A DNA stretch of 64,000 bases from Escherichia phage Murica. Each line of letters begins with the position of its first letter. Within the stretch, counting starts at the first letter, position 1. The notes beneath the pieces were generated by a model. It saw nothing but the letters and a program-made list of their open reading frames with translations. It searched no databases and was not told the origin of the DNA. Position numbers and translations under genes: made by a program. Location: sequence record NC_041871.1; one strand, 5' to 3'. Positions 1 through 9,217 of the stretch are shown here, piece after piece.

Positions 1-1983
1 TTATTTGGTGTTATTCTTTGCGTCGATCAGTTCACGGTATTCAATCATAGCAGGAGTGTCCCAATATTTCAAGCCCACATGCTTCAAAAGTGGATATTTC
101 TTTTCCAATCTTGCAATATAGGCCTTCCCGCACTTGACTCGGTTGGCGATTAAGATTTTGGCACGATGATTTAGCTCACTGTGCTTCCACGCGGTGTTAC
201 CTTCCCACTTGTGGAAATGTGGCCGATAATTTCCAAAATCTTGCATGGGGATAATTTTCCCTAATTGTCTATACAGGCTGTCATATGAAGTTTCATTTGC
301 TGCGCGAGTCAGTAAGAATTTCCAGGCGTCCTCTTTCAACAAATGTTCCACATTTTTCTCTGTAACATACTGGCAATCAGGATCAGTCCAAAGCAGACGA
401 GATTCTGATACCAGGTACAGATCTTCCCCTTCAGGAATCTGGAGTGCCGCACGCACACGGTCATAATTTTGCTGGTAGATGTTACTTAGCTGTCCCAGCC
501 AACAACTTCCACGTTGGATATCACCCTCATAAGGAATGCAGTGCTTAATCTTCTTGAACTCTGCCTTAGTAATACGTTCACGACGGAAGTAACCATCCTT
601 CTCAAGCTTTTTAACCCAATAACCTGGCTCGTAATGAGTTTTTGTTTCACCTTTCTTCGCAGGTCGGCGAGGGAGCTCTGATAACAATTTGACAGTATCT
701 GCAAAGAACGGATGGTGTGCCGCCTCTTTAAACTCTTTCACCAGATCCGTGTTCCGGCAATAGAAAACGTTGCGTCCGGTGATTTCGCTTAAGTAGTTAC
801 ACTTATTTCGGTTATATTTACCATCTCCGTCGTTAAATACAAGGTATACACCTCGTAAGAACTCCGACTTTCCGTAACGAGCATAGCCTATGCGGCCTTT
901 ATTTAAGCCGCCAGCGAAAATTTCACAATCGCCTAAGTCGCCAAGCCCTGTTTCTTCCCAACGGTTCCACATAAAGTTTTTGCCGAAGATGTGTCCGAAC
1001 ACTCCACTATTCTTCATCATTTCACGTGCTTCTGCGGAGGTTTTTGCCGTCTCCAGTTCTGCAATAACTTCTGCCCCGCGAAGACGTATACCTTCTTTGA
1101 CAAAGGCCTCCAGGCGATCCTGGAATCCACCGTCGTCATGGCCCTCTATGGTCCATTCACGCCCAGGGTTAATATTGCAATCCCCAATAGGAATTTCCAC
1201 GCAGATTGCAGGGTAATCGGTCAATGTCTCCAGGAACTTGGAGCGGTAAGGTTGGTGACCCATCACAACACGGCTCTCATCAGAACTGGTATAACCTTTC
1301 AGGATGGTCATTTTCCAGCCATCCTTCTCGTAATGATACTGTGCCTCAACCTTGTCACCTTCTAACATCTTACTGGTCATAGGATCGGTGACGATGAACG
1401 GAAACTTCGCATAGCGTAAGCACGATGCAATAGCAGTGCGATATTTCAGGACATGCTCTTTCTTAACATGGAACTGAACTTTTACCCCGTTGTGCTCTTC
1501 AGTCTTCCGCTCACGGATCTTGGTAACGTTTGGGATACCCTGATCCAAGAACAATAGATATGTGCTTTCAACACCATTGTGCACACTGATAACATCGAAA
1601 GTGTCCACCATACTGAACGGAGCCTTTGAACCAACACCTTTATTACCTACCAGAGCGTTGCTGTTGCGCTTGGTTGACTCCCCGAGATTCATGAAAGTGT
1701 TGCGGACCATCTCTTCTGACATGCCCAATCCAACGTCCTGCACAAAGAAGTATGGTTCAAGGTCTGTAGGAGAGTGAATGATGATCGGTACATCACCCCG
1801 TCCAGACTCAACATGGGAGTCCACAGCATTGAAGATTGGTTCACGGCAGCTTGCCAGCACCTTATCTTCGTAAATCCCTTTAATGATTAGCCCAAAAGTC
1901 TCTTTGTTCAGAGAAATTGAGCCCCTGGTGACCTCCATATTTCCGGTCAGCACTGCTTTAGTTTCATTACTGTTTACAATCAT
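1..1983 (-). CDS. GHKL-superfamily (Bergerat-fold) ATPase domain protein, 660 aa, large C-terminal region unassigned
   Basis: N-terminal 150 aa carries N-box (REPIFNAVDS), G1 box (VQDVGLGM) and G2 box (GNKGVGSKAPF) in canonical order and spacing. Start overlaps stop of the adjacent SleB-like gene (ATGA). TAA stop at 1-3, so the ORF is complete. Confidence 0.55.
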   Translation of the reverse strand: MIVNSNETKAVLTGNMEVTRGSISLNKETFGLIIKGIYEDKVLASCREPIFNAVDSHVESGRGDVPIIIHSPTDLEPYFFVQDVGLGMSEEMVRNTFMNLGESTKRNSNALVGNKGVGSKAPFSMVDTFDVISVHNGVESTYLLFLDQGIPNVTKIRERKTEEHNGVKVQFHVKKEHVLKYRTAIASCLRYAKFPFIVTDPMTSKMLEGDKVEAQYHYEKDGWKMTILKGYTSSDESRVVMGHQPYRSKFLETLTDYPAICVEIPIGDCNINPGREWTIEGHDDGGFQDRLEAFVKEGIRLRGAEVIAELETAKTSAEAREMMKNSGVFGHIFGKNFMWNRWEETGLGDLGDCEIFAGGLNKGRIGYARYGKSEFLRGVYLVFNDGDGKYNRNKCNYLSEITGRNVFYCRNTDLVKEFKEAAHHPFFADTVKLLSELPRRPAKKGETKTHYEPGYWVKKLEKDGYFRRERITKAEFKKIKHCIPYEGDIQRGSCWLGQLSNIYQQNYDRVRAALQIPEGEDLYLVSESRLLWTDPDCQYVTEKNVEHLLKEDAWKFLLTRAANETSYDSLYRQLGKIIPMQDFGNYRPHFHKWEGNTAWKHSELNHRAKILIANRVKCGKAYIARLEKKYPLLKHVGLKYWDTPAMIEYRELIDAKNNTK

Positions 1984-2480
1984 TTATTGCGCTCCTTGTA
2001 GTAGATATGGCTCCCGAATTGAGCTGTCCTCTGCATCTTTTTTGCCCATTTCGGTCGTACTTTGGTTGTATGGTAGTGTGTTGCTCCACCTGTTATGTCC
2101 ATAGCCATGTATGCAACATGGTTGTTATTATAGACCTTTAGAAGCATCTTTGCAAGACTTTTAGCGTGATCCCATGAATCTTTTTCTGTCACCTTAAAAG
2201 TTTTGCCGTGGTTTGTCCACGAAAACTGGTTAGGTTGGTAGACAATCTTTCTTATAGTGTCTGGGTATTTAGGGTGGGATTTCCTGTTTAGTGTGGCAAA
2301 CCCAGATGCCAGCATACCCATCGTGCCATCTCCTCTAGCTTCCCTGTAGATATTGCATGCCAGAATGTTTTCCTTAGTATCTGATGGCTTGCAAGTATGA
2401 TATACTTTTTGTTTTGGTGCTGCAACAACAGGCAGCGATAAAAGTGCGCTCAAAATAATAGCAAAGATCTTAATTTTCAC
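1980..2480 (-). CDS. SleB-family cell-wall hydrolase with N-terminal signal peptide (candidate secreted endolysin)
   Basis: Motifs NIYREARGDG, LNR, QFSW and GGATHYH match the SleB/Hydrolase_2 pattern. N-terminus MKIKIFAIILSALLSLPVVAAP is signal-peptide-like. GTG start with GGAG 8 nt upstream. Confidence 0.7.
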   Translation of the reverse strand: MKIKIFAIILSALLSLPVVAAPKQKVYHTCKPSDTKENILACNIYREARGDGTMGMLASGFATLNRKSHPKYPDTIRKIVYQPNQFSWTNHGKTFKVTEKDSWDHAKSLAKMLLKVYNNNHVAYMAMDITGGATHYHTTKVRPKWAKKMQRTAQFGSHIYYKERNK

Positions 2481-2500
2481 AATGACTCCAAATAGAAAAT

Positions 2501-2516
2501 CCCCGCCGAAGCGGGG
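2501..2516 (-). terminator. hairpin CCCCGC-CGAA-GCGGGG, minus-strand terminator or attenuator 20 nt upstream of the SleB-like start
   Basis: Perfect 6-bp GC stem with a 4-nt loop, followed on the minus strand by ATTTTCTATTT. The same 16-mer recurs at 28932-28947. Confidence 0.5.
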
Positions 2517-2529
2517 GAGGTCTTAGAAA

Positions 2530-2910
2530 TTAATCGTAGTGTGCCAAAATCTCTCCATCGTTGCAAGTTCCCTCTACAAAGTTATGAAGATTCATGCACT
2601 CATCTTGATAGAAGAATTTACCGCTTTTCAGCCGTAGGCCAAACAACTCCGCATCTCCACGATGGCAAGCCTCTACAAGTTCATAGATTTCATACGGCAA
2701 CTCTCCGTCGTCATGGAAGAATCCAGCCTTATCGTTGACATAAATGAAGAAATAATCACTGCTATCGCAAGCGTCCAATATTTTAAACCAGACTTCATCT
2801 ACATCTTTTTCTCGGATATCGATCACGCAAGTGGAGCTGCATTCGTACTCCTTCTCCGGCTCCTCGGTCAATACCACCAGGTAGTTTCCCCGCTTACCTA
2901 CTTTAGCCAT
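2530..2910 (-). CDS. hypothetical protein (start trimmed to MAKVGKRG)
   Basis: ORF 2530-2958 in track. The ATG at 2908-2910 has a strong SD (AAGGGGGG) and lies 10 nt after the stop of the AAA+ gene; the longer start would overlap that gene. Confidence 0.45.
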   Translation of the reverse strand: MAKVGKRGNYLVVLTEEPEKEYECSSTCVIDIREKDVDEVWFKILDACDSSDYFFIYVNDKAGFFHDDGELPYEIYELVEACHRGDAELFGLRLKSGKFFYQDECMNLHNFVEGTCNDGEILAHYD

Positions 2911-2920
2911 ACAACCCCCC

Positions 2921-4105
2921 TTAAGCTTTAGCCAAAATGGCGCTAAACTCTTCACCAAACTCTTTTACAATCTTCATCAGGTTTGGGTATGCTTTGATCA
3001 GCTGAGCAACAATCTTGTCACGCCCTTTACCGATAAGCAAGGCATTTCCTAAGGCATTAGGTTTCATCATCGCCATAAAGACTGAGAATACAAAATCTCG
3101 GTTCTCGTCCTTGAAGTTTTCCCAAAGGAAATCGAGGAAGTTTGCCACGCAGCTGACAAGATCTTCGTCTGAGATACTTGCATTTTCCATCATATTGCGA
3201 ATAGCGATACAACCTTCAGATCCAAGAATCCACAAAATGTCTGGCTGCTTAGGACCTACGTATTCTTTGCAGCCACCTGCCATAATCCGACCGATTTCCG
3301 GTAAATTACGTTTCTTGGTGTGGTAAGTCCAGATCTCTACCGCTGCAGTGTGACCAATAGCACCTTGTAGAAGAACACGGGCCATAGCGTCAGAAATAAT
3401 ACCGCTGTCAAAATCGTGCAAGATGTCAGATGCAGCAACCCAAGATCGTGGTGTGGCAAAAGATGGACAATTAATCTCAGCCATAGCCTCATAATTATCA
3501 ATAGCTGATGGAACTCTTTTCAGATACCCAATTACAGAGGAGTGAACCCCGTTGAGGAATGCGTAGTCCTCAATAAACACCTCTGCATTGCTTGTAACCT
3601 CTACAATGATAAAACGGTTAGCCAGAGGGGCTTCGAGCGCCGAAAGAACCGCACCATCTGTAGAACGGTTACCCGCAGCCACAAAAACAGAACCCTTAGG
3701 GAATGCATAGGTGCCGCACTTGTGGTCAAGCATAATTTGCATTGCAACCTTTTGCAGGTAGTTATCTGCATGAGTGAGCTCATCCAGAAAGATAATTCCG
3801 CTCCAGTCAGGATCCGCAGGCCAAAATTCTGGAATTGCAAACACTGTACGTGTAGTTCCATCCGCTTCTACAGGGATAGGTAGCCCAGATAAGTCGGCAG
3901 GATCTTTATCTGACAGTCGCACGTCAACAAGGTTGTCATCTCGCTCACCGAACATATTATCAGCGATCTGCTTCATCACCTGGCTTTTACCCACACCCAT
4001 TGGTCCCAAAATTAGGACAGATCGGCTATGACGTTGGGCAAACTGAATAATAGCTGGCAACTCACGGACAGTGATTTGACCACTTTCGAATACGTTTCTT
4101 GACAT
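2921..4105 (-). CDS. AAA+ ATPase, MoxR/CbbQ/CobS-like (AAA_5-type)
   Basis: Walker A GPMGVGKS, Walker B IIFLDEL, sensor-1-like VAAGN. 394 aa. Confidence 0.7.
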   Translation of the reverse strand: MSRNVFESGQITVRELPAIIQFAQRHSRSVLILGPMGVGKSQVMKQIADNMFGERDDNLVDVRLSDKDPADLSGLPIPVEADGTTRTVFAIPEFWPADPDWSGIIFLDELTHADNYLQKVAMQIMLDHKCGTYAFPKGSVFVAAGNRSTDGAVLSALEAPLANRFIIVEVTSNAEVFIEDYAFLNGVHSSVIGYLKRVPSAIDNYEAMAEINCPSFATPRSWVAASDILHDFDSGIISDAMARVLLQGAIGHTAAVEIWTYHTKKRNLPEIGRIMAGGCKEYVGPKQPDILWILGSEGCIAIRNMMENASISDEDLVSCVANFLDFLWENFKDENRDFVFSVFMAMMKPNALGNALLIGKGRDKIVAQLIKAYPNLMKIVKEFGEEFSAILAKA

Positions 4106-4374
4106 TAGTAAAAGTCCTCTACTTGTGTGTAAGTGTTTTCAAAGTTTTCCAAAACAGATATCACATCGAATCTGTCAATATCATACGTGACTCTCCAGTT
4201 GTACGCAACCCTTTCTGCTGTTGCCTCTTCTGGCGCTAGTCGTCTGCTGGCATAAAAGAGTGTTGGAGTACACTTTCTTGCTTGCCCTCTAACTTTCCCA
4301 TAATAATATCTGTGAATATCTTTGTCAAAATTTAACTCTTTTTCTGCACGAAGTTCATATTGCTGGTATAACAT
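4105..4374 (-). CDS. hypothetical protein, 89 aa
   Basis: ORF in operon context; start overlaps the upstream stop (translational coupling). Confidence 0.4.
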   Translation of the reverse strand: MLYQQYELRAEKELNFDKDIHRYYYGKVRGQARKCTPTLFYASRRLAPEEATAERVAYNWRVTYDIDRFDVISVLENFENTYTQVEDFY

Positions 4375-4418
4375 CTCTACTACTCCTTAAGCAGCATCCT
4401 TGCCGCCATTCCTGCCCA

Positions 4419-4799
4419 CTAAAATGCAGTCCGAATCCAGACAAGGTTCTTATCTGCCCAATCATAGAGGCAAGTCATTGCACTATTGAATTGCTCACAC
4501 GGAGGATAATCTTCTTCCATCTGGCGCATAGCAGAGCCTTGTGGGTAAAGCTCCCGTGCTGCAAACCACGCGTCGTAGTCATCAACGGTGTCGAAGTAGT
4601 ATACAACATCCTCTAACTCAGGATCGAACTTTGAACTATCAGGATCCAGTTGTTCAGGGAACTTGGAGCGTAACTTGCCAGCCACAATACTTGCCAACTC
4701 GCTAACATGCTTATTGTCCCACTCCACTAGCTTCCCGTCTTCAGTGATGCGTCCTAACCACTGATCATGAAGGTCAACTGTTGTCTTCCACTGAGCCAT
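4419..4799 (-). CDS. hypothetical acidic protein, 126 aa
   Basis: ORF in a compact early operon; D/E-rich composition. Confidence 0.45.
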   Translation of the reverse strand: MAQWKTTVDLHDQWLGRITEDGKLVEWDNKHVSELASIVAGKLRSKFPEQLDPDSSKFDPELEDVVYYFDTVDDYDAWFAARELYPQGSAMRQMEEDYPPCEQFNSAMTCLYDWADKNLVWIRTAF

Positions 4800-4801
4800 T
4801 A

Positions 4802-5059
4802 TCAGTCCACCTCTTCTTCTCGTTGTAGTTCAAGATACCCGTAGGTCTGGACATCTTGAAGGGTGTGGAACTCCCCCTCTGCCGCTAAGGCACGAACAAC
4901 TTGGCACAAAACCTTATGAGGAACTTCATCCAAACCTAGATTCAGTGCAGGAAACACCTTATCTAAGTCAACAAAATAAACGAACTGTAGCTCACCAGCT
5001 TCAAAAGGTGTATCTTCAATAAACATCTTCTCGGCATTAGTCAAGATCTGCACTTTCAT
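4802..5059 (-). CDS. hypothetical acidic protein, 85 aa
   Basis: ORF, tightly packed; acidic C-terminus (QREEEVD). Confidence 0.4.
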   Translation of the reverse strand: MKVQILTNAEKMFIEDTPFEAGELQFVYFVDLDKVFPALNLGLDEVPHKVLCQVVRALAAEGEFHTLQDVQTYGYLELQREEEVD

Positions 5060-5415
5060 TATTCTACCTCCTCTTCTTTTTCTTCGGCATTAGTTTCATG
5101 GCTACCCCACTCGGGAGTTTCCACCTCGATAGTAAACTCACGCACTACACGGTAATTGCCCATGAAGCGCTCTACTTCGTCAAGGCTTATGGAGAGGCCA
5201 TTGGCAACCAGGTCTGCAGCACCCTCTTCTACCAGGTAGTCCAGATTGGCTTCCAGAGCCTCAGGTTCAAACCCTGTCAATGCAATCAGATAACCTTCCC
5301 CTTCATCAGGGAGGACAATACAGCCCAATTGATTTTCTTTAAAAAGGCAGTGACCATCATTATTGATTGGGTGTTCATTGCAGTAAATAGCTGCACGATA
5401 AGTAACTTTAGACAT
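5059..5415 (-). CDS. hypothetical highly acidic protein (start trimmed to MSKVTYRA)
   Basis: Track ORF 5059-5436. ATG at 5413-5415 has GGAG 9 nt upstream and sits inside the 29-bp repeat. Strongly E/D-rich with a poly-Glu C-terminus. Confidence 0.45.
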   Translation of the reverse strand: MSKVTYRAAIYCNEHPINNDGHCLFKENQLGCIVLPDEGEGYLIALTGFEPEALEANLDYLVEEGAADLVANGLSISLDEVERFMGNYRVVREFTIEVETPEWGSHETNAEEKEEEVE

Positions 5416-5420
5416 CGGTA
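5392..5420 (-). repeat. 29-bp exact repeat, copy A (inverted relative to copy B at 7254-7282), spans the start codon
   Basis: Reverse complement of 5392-5420 equals 7254-7282 (TACCGATGTCTAAAGTTACTTATCGTGCA). Confidence 0.9.
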
Positions 5421-5428
5421 AGGTCTCC

Positions 5429-5707
5429 TTAGGCAATTGTCATTTTACATTCTTGAAATTTTAACACAAGACGGTGATTGTGTCTAGTGTCTAAAAAGAT
5501 TTTTTCAACCATCAGGCACACGGTATAACCGTCCATCTTGTTGACAACAAAATCTCCAGGATGAGGGAGGATGTCTCCCGGATTGGGGAAACATAGTCCA
5601 CTCAGAAAGGCATCGTCAGTGGTGGACTTAATAGATTTCCACACACTGTCTGCCTGAACATGTTCACCGACGTAATATACATTACCACATGCCTTCATCA
5701 TAGTCAA
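5429..5707 (-). CDS. hypothetical protein, 92 aa
   Basis: ORF in operon context. Confidence 0.4.
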   Translation of the reverse strand: MTMMKACGNVYYVGEHVQADSVWKSIKSTTDDAFLSGLCFPNPGDILPHPGDFVVNKMDGYTVCLMVEKIFLDTRHNHRLVLKFQECKMTIA

Positions 5708-6603
5708 ACCCTCGCATAAATTAAACTTGTATCAGTATACTTCTTTAATGGGTAAATATCCTGTCCATAGATGCAATCATTAAACACCTCATCTACCCAA
5801 AGGCTACACTTATATCCCATCATTTCTAAAACACCCATCTCTTCTTCGGTAAACTTATCACCGCTCTTGCAAGATGTCAATACCTCATTCTGAACTCTTG
5901 CTACCTCGAAGCGGTTATTGGCAATATCGCTATTGGCGATCAAATACTCACCTAGAGGGTGTGCGGCATTAAAGATGCACAGTGGACGGCTGACGTAATA
6001 GTCTCCAGGTGTATAAAAATTGTTGAGGTCTTTCACTAGAACATTCTTATCAGTCACTTCATTTATAACATCATGCATATCGCACATCTTTATATGTTTG
6101 AGGATTCCATCCCCCATCACAAAATAAAAACTTGCTGAGACACTTTCGGCATAGATCTTACTAGATCCGTTGTAGTTGTATTTTACTCGGATGCTAACGG
6201 GGGTTTTTCCTGTCGCGTTAGCCATCATCCAAAGAAATGGCAGCTCATACTTCTCCTCTGAGGAAACAAAAGGTGAGGTAGCCAGAGATCGAAAACCTCC
6301 AGAGAAGTTGAAAGTTACAGAACCGCTCCGGCGGTATGATACCGCGTATTCTACTTTTATATCGACATACCCATTGGAATAGGTGTGTCCTTCATTATCT
6401 AAATATGTCCACTTATCAGACCCAGATACCAATCTACGCTCAATAACCTTCATCACTATAGGAATTAATGGGTTGGTACAAACCGCTTTTGAAGTAGCTT
6501 TATCATCTAAAGCCTCGTAAATTGCAGAAAGGATGTCCCCAGCTGAAAGATTGGTTGTTATGTCCTGTTTCCACCGCGTACTAAAACTGTTAAGATTTGC
6601 CAT
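5704..6603 (-). CDS. hypothetical protein, 299 aa (first gene of the minus-strand accessory operon)
   Basis: ATG at 6601-6603 preceded by AGGAG; sits directly downstream of the minus-strand promoter. Confidence 0.5.
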   Translation of the reverse strand: MANLNSFSTRWKQDITTNLSAGDILSAIYEALDDKATSKAVCTNPLIPIVMKVIERRLVSGSDKWTYLDNEGHTYSNGYVDIKVEYAVSYRRSGSVTFNFSGGFRSLATSPFVSSEEKYELPFLWMMANATGKTPVSIRVKYNYNGSSKIYAESVSASFYFVMGDGILKHIKMCDMHDVINEVTDKNVLVKDLNNFYTPGDYYVSRPLCIFNAAHPLGEYLIANSDIANNRFEVARVQNEVLTSCKSGDKFTEEEMGVLEMMGYKCSLWVDEVFNDCIYGQDIYPLKKYTDTSLIYARV

Positions 6604-6643
6604 AAGTAAGTGCTCCTATGTTAGTTTTCTTTCGAATGGGTGC

Positions 6644-6672
6644 ACTATATTGTGGAGTTAGAGTAAAGTCAA
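6644..6672 (-). promoter_or_regulatory. sigma70-like promoter, TTGACT-N17-TATAGT, minus strand
   Basis: -35 is reverse complement of 6667-6672, -10 is reverse complement of 6644-6649, 17-nt spacer; about 40 nt upstream of the 6603 start. Confidence 0.55.
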
Positions 6673-6685
6673 CACGTTTTTGATG

Positions 6686-6714
6686 TTGACATCTGTTGAG
6701 ACAATTGATACGAT
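6686..6714 (+). promoter_or_regulatory. sigma70-like promoter, TTGACA-N17-TACGAT with TG extended -10, plus strand
   Basis: TTGACA at 6686-6691, 17-nt spacer, TACGAT at 6709-6714 preceded by TGA; upstream of ATG 6746. Confidence 0.5.
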
Positions 6715-6745
6715 TTCTTCACTTACAGAGCACGAGAGACGACTC

Positions 6746-7723
6746 ATGAATCTTGAAAAATATTATACACCAGAAGAGTTAGAGCGCTTGCTCAAAAAAT
6801 ATAGACGCAAACAGAATAACGCACGGAAACGAGATATAGAGTTCGACCTGTCATGGGAAGAATACCTCCTATTTGGTAAAAAACTTTTAGGAGATGGAGT
6901 ATGCGACTATACCCTTATACCTTTTGACATGCACACAGATGAAAACGGGCTGGGGAATCCTTTCTACCCATCCCTGGAGCGGATAGATGATGAAGGTCCT
7001 TATGCGGTTGATAACTGTTGTGTGGTGGGATTGAGATGCAACTCTCTAAAGGACTGTCTGGTAGATAAAAAGACTGCAGTCTTGATTAAAGACGAAACTG
7101 ATCGAAAAATTGTCCAGCAGATGATGCTCCACCTGAGCGAAGAGCGTATGGAGAAATTGAAAGGTGATTATACTTTTGAAGATTTCATCTTGCAATATGG
7201 AACGGAAGAGGATAAACTAGCACTCTTTGACGAAGAAGAGGAGGAAGATATGCTACCGATGTCTAAAGTTACTTATCGTGCACCCAAGAAGCACATTTCC
7301 GACATTGTAAACGAGCCTATCACAGAAGAGATTGAAGAAATGACGCAACAGGTGCATGAAGAGGAAAAAGAGACTCAGGAGGTCGAAGAGGAGCTTACAG
7401 AAGAGGTTCCTGCACTACCTGATGATGTTGAGATTGCCAAAGCTTACACTTTCTATTGTCAAACGTTCTACGATGTAGGTATGAAAGTTGATCTGTCGTT
7501 CAGCCAATTTAAGAGTTCGTATATTCGCAAATGCTGTGCTTTAACTGGTGAACGTCTTGGAGCTGGACTTAAACCCCTGTTGGTGACCGACTGGAATAAA
7601 GGTTTCACTAAAGGAAACTTTATGGTAGTATCTCCAATTATGGAGAAAGCTATGACAGATCTTATGAAGACCACCCGCATGACAATGACCGAGTTGGCAG
7701 GTATTTTCAAACACGTTAAATAA
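6746..7723 (+). CDS. hypothetical protein with an internally duplicated Cys-containing domain and an acidic linker
   Basis: Track ORF starts at TTG 6680 inside the promoter; re-called to ATG 6746 (GAGAG upstream). Both halves share the pattern D-x-x-F/L-x-x-S ... G-x-Y ... N-x-x-V. Contains copy B of the 29-bp repeat internally (…MLPMSKVTYRAP…). Confidence 0.5.
   Translation: MNLEKYYTPEELERLLKKYRRKQNNARKRDIEFDLSWEEYLLFGKKLLGDGVCDYTLIPFDMHTDENGLGNPFYPSLERIDDEGPYAVDNCCVVGLRCNSLKDCLVDKKTAVLIKDETDRKIVQQMMLHLSEERMEKLKGDYTFEDFILQYGTEEDKLALFDEEEEEDMLPMSKVTYRAPKKHISDIVNEPITEEIEEMTQQVHEEEKETQEVEEELTEEVPALPDDVEIAKAYTFYCQTFYDVGMKVDLSFSQFKSSYIRKCCALTGERLGAGLKPLLVTDWNKGFTKGNFMVVSPIMEKAMTDLMKTTRMTMTELAGIFKHVK
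7254..7282 (+). repeat. 29-bp exact repeat, copy B
   Basis: Identical to the reverse complement of 5392-5420; encodes the same peptide MSKVTYRA. Confidence 0.9.
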
Positions 7724-7727
7724 TGAC

Positions 7728-7744
7728 AGGGGCCAATGGCCCCT
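7728..7744 (+). promoter_or_regulatory. intergenic hairpin AGGGGCC-AAT-GGCCCCT
   Basis: Perfect 7-bp stem immediately after the TAA at 7721-7723 and before the RBS (GGAG) of the next gene. Confidence 0.4.
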
Positions 7745-7756
7745 TCTGGAGTTTTA

Positions 7757-9217
7757 ATGGATAGCAGAAGTTCAGAAATCATTGCCTCTCAGAAAGATGA
7801 TGCCCTGAGAATGTTGCAGGCTGCACGTATGTATCTCCTTGAAAAGCTGCCGTTTTATGGCACACTACTGTCAGGGTTGCAGTTCGTAGAAAACCACACA
7901 TGGTGCTCCACCATGGCAACCGACCATAAACGCATCTATTACAGTCCTGAGTTCATTATGGGATTGGCTGATGAACGCAAGGCTATTCTTAAGGCTTCTC
8001 TAACTGACGAGCAGTTTGAGATGGCTGAAGTTTTCTATTCCCCAAAATCTGTGAAAGAGGTGGCCTTCCTTCTGTCACATGAGGTGGGGCATATTATCTG
8101 TGATCACCTAGTCCGTGGTAAAAGCTTTGAGCCGGAACTGTTCAATATTGCTTGTGATCACGTTATCAACACAGGCCTTGTGGTTGACTTTAGCAAACCT
8201 CCTTGTGTTTTCTTCCCGAAGGGGAAAAGCACTACGTTCATGAAAGGTAAGCCTTTTGGCTTCTTAGCCAGCTGCTACTGCGACATGAAGTTTCATGGAT
8301 GGATTGCTGAGAACGTTTATGCAGTTCTTGATAAGCAAAGAGATCAGAATAACGGTAAAAGTAAGAACGGTAAAGGTGAGAACTCTCAAAGCGATAAGCG
8401 ACAAACCGATGATCACATGAGTGGGAACGGTGGCACCAGTGATAATCTTGGAAAGGCTATGGGGTATGATCAGCCACAACCTGTAATCAGCCAATCTGAT
8501 AAAGATCAGGCCATGCAGGACTCTGGTGATATGCTGGAGGCAGCAATGCAAGCGTCCGGAGGCCGTTGCCCTGAGGCGGTGCGTGAGTTTGTCAAGAACA
8601 GAGGTAAGCCTGTAATCAACTATATAGACATCATTAAGCAACGTATGTTGTCTAAAAGAAAGGCCGAACTGACCTACAGAAAACCTGGTCGCCGATCTGG
8701 GTCTTTGACCAGCACAATGCGAAAAGTTGGGGCTATAAACAAGAACCAGCACGTTATTGTTCCTGGTCGTAATCCGGAAAACACTATAGATATTGTGGTG
8801 GCTTTAGACGTTTCTGGCTCGATCTCTCAAAGAACTTTAAAGAAAATGTTCAATGAAATCACCGGATTGTGCAATCTGTATAAAGAGTTTAAGGTTACAA
8901 TGTTCTGTTGGTCAACTGAGGTTGGAGAGGTTAAAGTATACACTCGCGGCAACATAGACGAGATGGTCAACTATGAGGTCCACTCAACATGGGGCACAAC
9001 AGCTGCTTGCGTGTTCGAGTATCTGGATGCCAACATACCTAATGCAAAAGATGTCATCGTCCTGACCGACCTATACTTTGAGCATAACTTTGAACAAAAG
9101 GTTGTTGACAACAAGTGGAAAAAGTACGATACTCTATGGGTCCTCACTAAGGGGTATAATAAAAATTATATCCCGAGCTTTGGGAAAACTGTGGAATTAA
9201 TCGAGTACGCTAAGTAA
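7757..9217 (+). CDS. vWA-domain protein with N-terminal HExxH metallopeptidase-like domain (DUF2201-like, usual partner of MoxR ATPases)
   Basis: HExxH in LLSHEVGHIICDHL; MIDAS-like DxSxS in VALDVSGSIS. Start re-called from 7736 (inside the hairpin) to ATG 7757. Confidence 0.6.
   Translation: MDSRSSEIIASQKDDALRMLQAARMYLLEKLPFYGTLLSGLQFVENHTWCSTMATDHKRIYYSPEFIMGLADERKAILKASLTDEQFEMAEVFYSPKSVKEVAFLLSHEVGHIICDHLVRGKSFEPELFNIACDHVINTGLVVDFSKPPCVFFPKGKSTTFMKGKPFGFLASCYCDMKFHGWIAENVYAVLDKQRDQNNGKSKNGKGENSQSDKRQTDDHMSGNGGTSDNLGKAMGYDQPQPVISQSDKDQAMQDSGDMLEAAMQASGGRCPEAVREFVKNRGKPVINYIDIIKQRMLSKRKAELTYRKPGRRSGSLTSTMRKVGAINKNQHVIVPGRNPENTIDIVVALDVSGSISQRTLKKMFNEITGLCNLYKEFKVTMFCWSTEVGEVKVYTRGNIDEMVNYEVHSTWGTTAACVFEYLDANIPNAKDVIVLTDLYFEHNFEQKVVDNKWKKYDTLWVLTKGYNKNYIPSFGKTVELIEYAK

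Follow-up and report, generated by a model that had tools for sequence, protein, structure and literature searches.

A SleB-type hydrolase gene and rIIA at the left end of a Vequintavirus genome: very probably two independent accessory genes

When an ATPase gene and a gene for an exported cell-wall hydrolase overlap in a phage genome, do they encode one functional unit, or are they two genes sharing a transcription unit? This question is raised by positions 1-2520 of a 64,000-nucleotide (nt) stretch of the genome of Escherichia phage Murica (record NC_041871.1), which in its full length is referred to as the window. A 660-amino-acid (aa) open reading frame (ORF), a 166-aa ORF, the overlap between the two and a hairpin upstream are all located on the minus strand, at the coordinates at which an initial annotation of the sequence had first placed them. 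Our analyses suggest window positions 1-2520 very probably to contain two independent, dispensable accessory genes, i.e. rIIA and the gene of a SleB/CwlJ-family hydrolase, both lying at the tail of the leftward unit that an rV5-type phage transcribes early.

Window position 1 corresponds to nucleotide 1 of the rV5-type (Vequintavirus) genome record. Over window positions 1-4200 the DNA is 100% identical to Escherichia phage ime, 98.2% identical to Bas54/MaxBurger and 98-99.6% identical to ~100 other Vequintavirus (rV5-like) phages, and the first ORF is labelled rIIA in the 100%- and 98%-identical phages. The tables published for rV5 in 2013 (Kropinski et al., PMC3606486) list rIIA as gene 1 (1..1983), a "cell wall hydrolase" of 166 aa as gene 2 (1980..2480), gene 3 at 2530..2910 and the terminator t003 at 2490..2516 with a dG of -16.0 kcal/mol, and the coordinates of these three genes and of t003 are base-for-base equal to those in the window. 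A shift of gene 4 by 1 nt compared to rV5 shows that the window is not identical with the 2013 record but closely related to it; otherwise there is no difference of substance. The orthologues of rV5 genes 1 and 2 and of t003 in ime, Bas54/MaxBurger and Bas55/JeffSchatz show 98-100% DNA identity within the same 4200 positions. Genes, names and terminator are already known: all were in print for rV5 in 2013, and more than 100 close relatives carry them in their annotations. What the initial annotation had presented as an unusual module is the published rV5 annotation over again, feature by feature and position by position (PMC3606486).

rIIA, its domains and its partner rIIB

The 660-aa ORF covers 1..1983 on the minus strand, its codons running from 1983 to 4 and its stop codon being located at 3..1. 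By sequence comparison its product is the phage protein rIIA, encoded by one of the oldest known phage genes, and rIIA/rIIB are the classic counter to abortive-infection systems. The phrog_612 RIIA profile matches with E 3.6e-124, aligning protein residues 1-656 to profile positions 1-722 of 725, and T4 rIIA is found by BLASTP with 28% identity over residues 1-190 (E 3e-21), colinear from residue 1, with no BLASTP alignment to T4 rIIA for the C-terminal ~460 aa; the same assignment is given in rV5 Table S3. The next gene downstream, just past the left edge of the window, is rIIB, as seen in phage ime and in rV5_ev146, where it begins 10 nt after rIIA on the same strand; its product shares 36% identity with T4 rIIB over 204 C-terminal residues (E 4e-38). 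We surveyed 80 IMG/VR loci encoding an rIIA relative, 71 of which contain enough downstream sequence, and rIIB follows rIIA in 70 of these 71, identifying rIIB, not the hydrolase, as the conserved partner. The premise of the initial annotation that a GHKL ATPase is no standard phage component is wrong, rIIA being widespread in large virulent phages and already labelled in rV5.

Comparison with T4 shows the rIIA proteins to be homologous from residue 1 with the ATP-binding motifs invariant in both and rIIB encoded directly downstream in both, whereas the lengths differ (725 aa in T4 versus 660 aa here for rIIA, 312 aa versus 401 aa for rIIB), and rIIA.1 and gene 60 precede rIIA in T4 where the hydrolase gene precedes it in the window. 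On laboratory hosts neither the T4 genes nor their Bas54 counterparts, which are orthologous to those of the window, are essential. As an observation on such comparisons, the PhageMaP preprint (PMC11482910) gives more than 80% sequence homology of Bas63 g85/g84 to T4 RIIA/B, while the Vequintavirus identity to T4 is the 28% of the rIIA N-terminus and the 36% of the rIIB C-terminus mentioned above, so that figures of this kind need care.

Based on sequence motifs and the predicted structure, rIIA is a predicted cytoplasmic two-domain GHL-type ATPase followed by a ~370-aa family-specific C-terminal region. The GHKL (Bergerat) ATP-binding domain spans residues ~1-195 (1399..1983, minus strand); Pfam HATPase_c_3 matches residues 50-147 above its curated cut-off (E 1.7e-8), and all three boxes are present, i.e. 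the N box E48-x3-N52-A-x-D55, the G1 box D83-x-G85-x-G87 and the G2 box G113-x2-G116-x-G118, with the nine motif residues being invariant across 28 homologues including T4 rIIA. In this respect the Bergerat N-terminus resembling HATPase_c_3 and Hsp90, which the initial annotation had recognised, is confirmed. A second, 'transducer'-like domain (ribosomal S5 domain-2-like, GHL/MORC-type) follows at residues ~196-285 (1129..1398, minus strand) and carries the residues that are invariant in the alignment beyond the ATP-binding motifs, i.e. Y246, R275 and E276. The predicted structure shows residues 1-285 as a GHKL domain plus transducer domain arranged as in Hsp90/MutL/MORC/GyrB-type ATPases, and alignments of distant rIIA relatives are confined to residues 1-276. 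Searching the PDB with the rIIA family profile yielded Hsp90-family N-domains only (E ~1e-9), and nothing significant was obtained with the single sequence; our literature searches found no papers tying phage rIIA to Hsp90.

The C-terminal region at residues ~286-660 (4..1128, minus strand) is lineage-specific and is modelled as a helical linker, alpha/beta and beta-rich modules and a terminal helical bundle. The ~450 residues left unassigned by the initial annotation can thus be divided: residues 196-285 belong to the transducer domain, and residues 286-660 indeed match no solved fold. In the predicted structure no nuclease, phosphoesterase or peptidase fold is seen within residues 286-660. 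The unmatched 370 aa may represent a new fold engaging rIIB or defence proteins. Transmembrane (TM) segments are absent from rIIA, the best 19-residue hydropathy mean being 0.83. Compared with the GHL/MORC modules of Hsp90 (N and M domains), the MutL N-terminal domain, GyrB/ParE 43K, Topo VI-B, MORC2/3 and SMCHD1, rIIA shows 9-16% identity; the downstream functional domains of these enzymes have no equivalent in rIIA, in which neither an Hsp90 C-terminal dimerisation domain nor a Toprim domain, a MutL C-terminal endonuclease/dimerisation domain or a CW/coiled coil was found, and rIIB is without counterpart in the GHL/MORC enzymes. A clean domain map for the Vequintavirus rIIA may help with the 70-year-old question of how the rII proteins act.

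Transposon mutants in T4 rIIA/rIIB are depleted only on RexAB-expressing hosts (HIDEN-SEQ preprint), and deletion of rIIA or rIIB in Bas63 cuts plating 10^4-10^5-fold on QatABCD hosts, with complementation restoring it (PMC11482910). For Bas54, transposon insertions were obtained at 90 of 101 TA sites in rIIA and at 56 of 59 in rIIB, both genes being called non-essential on E. coli K-12. The genes of Bas63, presumably a Felixounavirus, were considered as direct orthologues of those in the window and rejected as such: the JeffSchatz locus tags stand for Bas55, not Bas63, and the QatABCD result therefore counts as homologue evidence only. The T4 pair, which protects membrane integrity, counters lambda RexAB exclusion, whereas no countered defence system is known for the Vequintavirus pair. 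By homology with T4 and Bas63, rIIA would act together with rIIB, encoded immediately downstream, and both would keep the infection productive in hosts carrying membrane-depolarising abortive-infection systems such as RexAB and QatABCD. ATP binding and hydrolysis probably power dimerisation or a clamp cycle, by analogy with other GHL ATPases. The proposal of a defence-related role in the initial annotation pointed in the right direction, since rIIA/rIIB are the classic counter to these systems.

A SleB-type hydrolase with a predicted signal peptide

The 166-aa ORF (1980..2480, minus strand; rV5 gene 2) starts with a GTG and reads from 2480 to 1983, with a GGAG at 2489..2486 ahead of the start. 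Its product is assigned to the SleB/CwlJ family (Hydrolase_2) of cell-wall enzymes by PF07486, PDB matches to the SleB catalytic-domain structures 4f55 and 4fet, phrog_938 and rV5 Table S3. Pfam PF07486 matches with E 2.1e-19 and 70.4 bits against a cut-off of 27, covering residues 51-161 (1998..2330, minus strand) as profile positions 2-100 of 100, which delimits the catalytic domain. Residues 1-20, MKIKIFAIILSALLSLPVVA, encoded at 2421..2480 on the minus strand and followed by AP, form a predicted cleavable Sec signal peptide judged by hydropathy and by inspection for the -3/-1 rule: they comprise a basic n-region, a hydrophobic core with a Kyte-Doolittle 19-residue mean of 2.34 and V-x-A before the likely cleavage site ahead of A21. 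An N-terminus of the signal-anchor-release type is formally still an alternative to the cleavable peptide. The hydrophobic N-terminus is shared by four of five aligned relatives (Seunavirus, Kashira, phi92-like and phAPEC8-like); the fifth, from Mydovirus, is 5'-truncated by its annotation. The SleB-family hydrolase of the initial annotation is borne out by the Pfam match, and by inspection the N-terminus has the features of the signal peptide noted there. For the Certrevirus homologue of CB7 a signal peptide has been reported, and this protein is toxic when expressed in E. coli (Buttimer et al., PMC7344957).

Just before the Pfam domain lies Glu47 (nt 2340-2342), within the sequence YREARGD. 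It does not vary among six phage homologues, and its aligned counterpart in the SleB structures 4f55/4fet is the first Glu of YGESRGE. This aligned Glu is presumably the SleB catalytic residue (Glu151 numbering). To act as a lytic transglycosylase, SleB needs a catalytic glutamate (PMC12331253). The Bacillus SleB/CwlJ enzymes of 4f55 and 4fet share the fold family of the catalytic domain with the phage enzyme, YGESRGE there being replaced by YREARGD here, but Bacillus SleB contains an N-terminal peptidoglycan-binding domain, which the phage hydrolase lacks. An assignment as the Bacillus SleB equivalog was tried and rejected: with the NCBIfam model spore_SleB TIGR02869 the protein reaches 48.3 bits where the cut-off is 236.5, the match is limited to the catalytic part (profile positions 82-201), and the protein has a single domain and 166 aa. 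The muramic-delta-lactam of the Bacillus cortex is absent from the host, which would leave the phage enzyme normal Gram-negative peptidoglycan as its substrate; the same holds for the SleB homologue of Zymomonas.

SleB-like hydrolases with a single Hydrolase_2 domain and a signal peptide are found throughout the subfamily Vequintavirinae (CB7_83, CR3_087), extra to a separate endolysin (PMC7344957). Concerning SleB-type enzymes of phages in Gram-negative hosts, our literature searches yielded remarks at the level of annotation but no functional studies. The hydrolase, a widespread and dispensable phage cell-wall enzyme predicted to be exported through Sec, would act on periplasmic peptidoglycan, as an auxiliary wall-remodelling or lysis-assisting enzyme.

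Adjacency, the t003 terminator and rival explanations

The hydrolase stop codon (TGA, 1982..1980) and the rIIA start codon (ATG, 1983..1981) overlap as ATGA at 1980..1983 on the minus strand. The translational coupling proposed by the initial annotation was correct in that this overlap is real; it is generic gene packing, because seven of 18 same-strand junctions in the operon overlap, by 1, 4 or 11 nt, and rIIA has its own Shine-Dalgarno sequence, AAGGAG, at 1997..1992, 8 nt before its ATG.

Ahead of the hydrolase gene, gene 3 is followed by the intrinsic terminator t003 (2490..2516, minus strand), in which the stem CCCCGC/GCGGGG is closed by a UUCG loop (2516..2501) and followed at 2500..2490 by an interrupted U tract. 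Our terminator scan reports the hairpin CCCCGC-UUCG-GCGGGG at 2516..2501 with six G-C pairs and the tail AUUUUCUAUUU, the 71-nt stretch 2470-2540 containing it folds with -18.9 kcal/mol (z = -2.1), and the site is annotated as 'terminator' in phages EdH4 and HdK5. The hairpin of t003 ends exactly 20 nt before the hydrolase GTG; the terminator-like hairpin at 2501-2516 that had been noted 20 nt upstream of the hydrolase is thus real and was already published as t003. In rV5, genes 10-1-238-164 form one leftward unit from P010 (6636..6681), the sole promoter published for it, with t003 as the sole internal terminator (PMC3606486). At the published positions of P010 and P011 our scan finds TTGACT-17-TATAGT on the minus strand and TTGACA-17-TACGAT on the plus strand, overlapped by an 8-bp hairpin at 6690..6668, within the divergent promoter region 6636-6713 separating the leftward unit of genes 10 to 1 from a rightward unit. 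As a promoter does not fit into the 20 nt separating t003 from the start of the hydrolase gene, the hydrolase is most simply expressed by read-through of t003 and is probably made only from such transcripts, which would hold a toxic exported enzyme at a low level. Seunavirus shows a terminator-like hairpin at the same position. In the uncultured phage L093, gene 3 is followed by a GC hairpin lacking the U tract, although rIIA and not the hydrolase gene comes next; this assigns the hairpin to the end of gene 3 and not to hydrolase regulation.

Within the hydrolase gene we found a sigma-70-like site, TTGCAA-17-TATAAT, at 2127..2155 on the minus strand, with 10 of 12 matches and of low confidence; the Seunavirus hydrolase gene contains a comparable internal site with 11 of 12 matches. 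The site at 2127..2155 does not figure among the promoters published for rV5 (PMC3606486), and promoter-like sites in window 1-7000 number 14 compared to 12.6 expected by chance. No Rfam RNA families were found in window 1-8000.

The order hydrolase-rIIA-rIIB is present at 13 of the 15 IMG/VR loci with at least 49% hydrolase identity, the other two stopping at the contig end. In Seunavirus and Mydovirus an ORF of 51-57 aa with two TM segments and a basic C-terminus lies between the hydrolase gene and rIIA, and Serratia phage Kashira has the hydrolase gene followed by a small membrane ORF and a helicase gene, without rIIAB. Certrevirus keeps the hydrolase, with rIIA/B absent (PMC7344957). The Certrevirus, Seunavirus and Mydovirus loci share a small two-TM holin-like ORF after the hydrolase gene, whereas the window has no such ORF. 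In phi92-like and phAPEC8-like phages the hydrolase gene is located among TerD and glycosyltransferase genes, and at 65 more distant hydrolase loci neither rIIA nor rIIB was found (0/65). Conversely, the uncultured phages L093 and L094 encode an rIIA 53% identical to that of the window, with syntenic MoxR and gene-3 homologues, without a hydrolase gene at the junction, the order being gene 3, GC hairpin, rIIA. A hydrolase gene occurs within 5 kb of rIIA at seven of the 80 IMG/VR rIIA loci, four from Vequintavirinae and three from one other lineage. Since the backbone carries the pair in some phages, only the hydrolase gene in others and only rIIAB in yet others, the genes vary independently and their adjacency is lineage-specific. 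This independent gain and loss argues against reading function into adjacency.

A functional pairing of ATPase and hydrolase, e.g. in ATP-regulated lysis, was the central proposal of the initial annotation. In this model translational coupling would fix the ratio of the two products within one module, which would serve, e.g., ATP-regulated lysis, host takeover or the control of superinfection. Several observations would fit: the ATGA overlap; the arrangement hydrolase-(small ORF)-rIIA-rIIB shared by Vequintavirus, Seunavirus, Mydovirus and further close relatives (the 13 of 15 close loci); the SleB-type gene lying upstream of rIIA in a second lineage, which is T4-like and unrelated; and the concern of both products with the envelope. 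Yet each gene is found without the other on the same backbone, rIIAB being missing in Kashira and Certrevirus and the hydrolase in L093/L094; the two genes fail to co-occur in T4 and at all 65 distant hydrolase loci, and only seven of 80 rIIA loci have a hydrolase gene within 5 kb. Moreover, the small membrane ORF splits the pair in the sister genera, where no overlap exists, overlaps are generic in the operon, rIIA has its own strong ribosome-binding site, and its conserved partner is rIIB. We therefore consider a common module improbable and the proposed pairing unsupported. A variant, an 'envelope module' in which the periplasmic enzyme alters peptidoglycan early and rIIA/rIIB stop the resulting stress from triggering abortive infection, or time that stress, is given equally little weight by us; if true, it would explain a SleB-type gene just upstream of rIIA in two unrelated lineages. 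Smaller still is the likelihood that the hydrolase is the real endolysin of the phage, exported by Sec independently of a holin and forming a lysis-timing cassette with rIIA/rIIB as 'lysis inhibitors', even though PHROG and several GenBank records label the hydrolase family 'endolysin' and rIIA/B 'lysis inhibitor', the two-TM, C-terminally basic ORF of 51-57 aa after the hydrolase in sister genera is class II holin-like (PMC7344957), and the CR3 homologue is 'implicated in host lysis' by annotation (PMC7344957). In Bas54, the hydrolase orthologue bas54_0065 is freely disrupted, with insertions at 32 of 36 TA sites and high read counts, and was called non-essential, whereas the separate lysozyme-type endolysin bas54_0202 and both spanins show no insertions. 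The characterised lysin is the lysozyme-type rV5 Gp89/LysECP26, the 98%-identical endolysin LysECP26 having been purified and found active. A phrog_24442 homologue or other small membrane ORF of this kind is absent from the whole window and no holin-like ORF adjoins the hydrolase gene, which belongs to the early unit and is not located with late genes, and 'lysis inhibitor' is a historical label for rII, referring to a prophage-dependent phenotype (T4 record note). The hydrolase is not the lysis endolysin of the phage, and the initial annotation was right in seeing no textbook lysis cassette here. Least likely of all, the 660-aa protein would be related to, or a fragment of, a GHKL enzyme of conventional kind and role, such as a type II topoisomerase ATPase subunit, MutL, MORC or Hsp90: its identity to these enzymes is 9-16%, its match to the RIIA family is colinear along the whole protein, and rIIB follows it at 70 of 71 loci with enough flank.

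We thus favour two independent, dispensable accessory genes, and several points weigh against this explanation or parts of it. Three contigs of an uncultured, unrelated T4-like lineage carry a SleB-type gene 0.1-2.5 kb upstream of rIIA; we treat this as chance clustering of early accessory genes, though it may hint at a link. The site at 2155..2127 is, with low confidence, a separate promoter for rIIA-rIIB, or else noise; as a promoter, it would free rIIA from read-through. The anti-abortive-infection role in this phage is one that we infer from T4 and Bas63, by analogy and not from a Vequintavirus, and Bas54 rIIA and rIIB were not conditionally essential in the one clinical-isolate comparison considered. 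The clamp cycle of rIIA is an analogy only; rIIA residues 286-660, although confidently modelled, are without a structural relative in the PDB; and a lysis-assisting role of the hydrolase is a guess.

Neighbouring genes and related loci

Gene 3 (window 2530-2958, minus strand) encodes 126 aa when starting from the ATG at 2910, the mechanical ORF reaching back to a TTG at 2958; it belongs to phrog_12370 of unknown function and is listed in the rV5 table as a homologue of T5 gene T5.083 (PMC3606486). Next to it, at 2921-4105 (minus strand), lies the gene of a MoxR-type AAA ATPase (phrog_1297), the orthologue of bas54_0063, which a 2025 preprint found to be required against DS-28, a defence system predicted in a clinical isolate of E. 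coli. Across the divergent promoter region, window 7736-9214 (plus strand) encodes a protein with a DUF2201_N metallopeptidase-like and a DUF2201 VWA-like part (Pfam E 4e-28 and 2e-11), a protein type that is the usual partner type of MoxR; its public label 'putative anti-sigma factor' looks like a mis-annotation.

L093 and L094 are the IMG/VR contigs 3300045988_159287 and 3300045988_140627 from uncultured phages of ~140 kb, in which MoxR, the gene-3 homologue and rIIA follow each other in the rV5 order at ~3000-7016. A megablast search of the phage collection gave no match for either, and they may represent an undescribed genus related to Vequintavirus.

In the T4-like contigs L125 (893-3773), L128 (1763-7184) and L166 (1906-7145) the SleB-type gene encodes a hydrophobic N-terminus and is located upstream of rIIA on the same strand, adjoining it in L125 and lying ~2.5 kb off in L128 and L166 with unrelated small genes between. 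The closest cultured homologue of the hydrolase from this lineage shows ~40% identity.

The small hydrophobic ORF after the SleB-type gene is located at 4452-4607 in Mydovirus (L003), 4452-4625 in Seunavirus (L004) and 4429-4671 in Kashira (L005). It encodes 80 aa without a PHROG match in Kashira. The Mydovirus and Seunavirus versions, of 51-57 aa, match phrog_24442 and, with two hydrophobic stretches and a C-terminus that is basic, fit the class II holin proposed for Certrevirus (PMC7344957).

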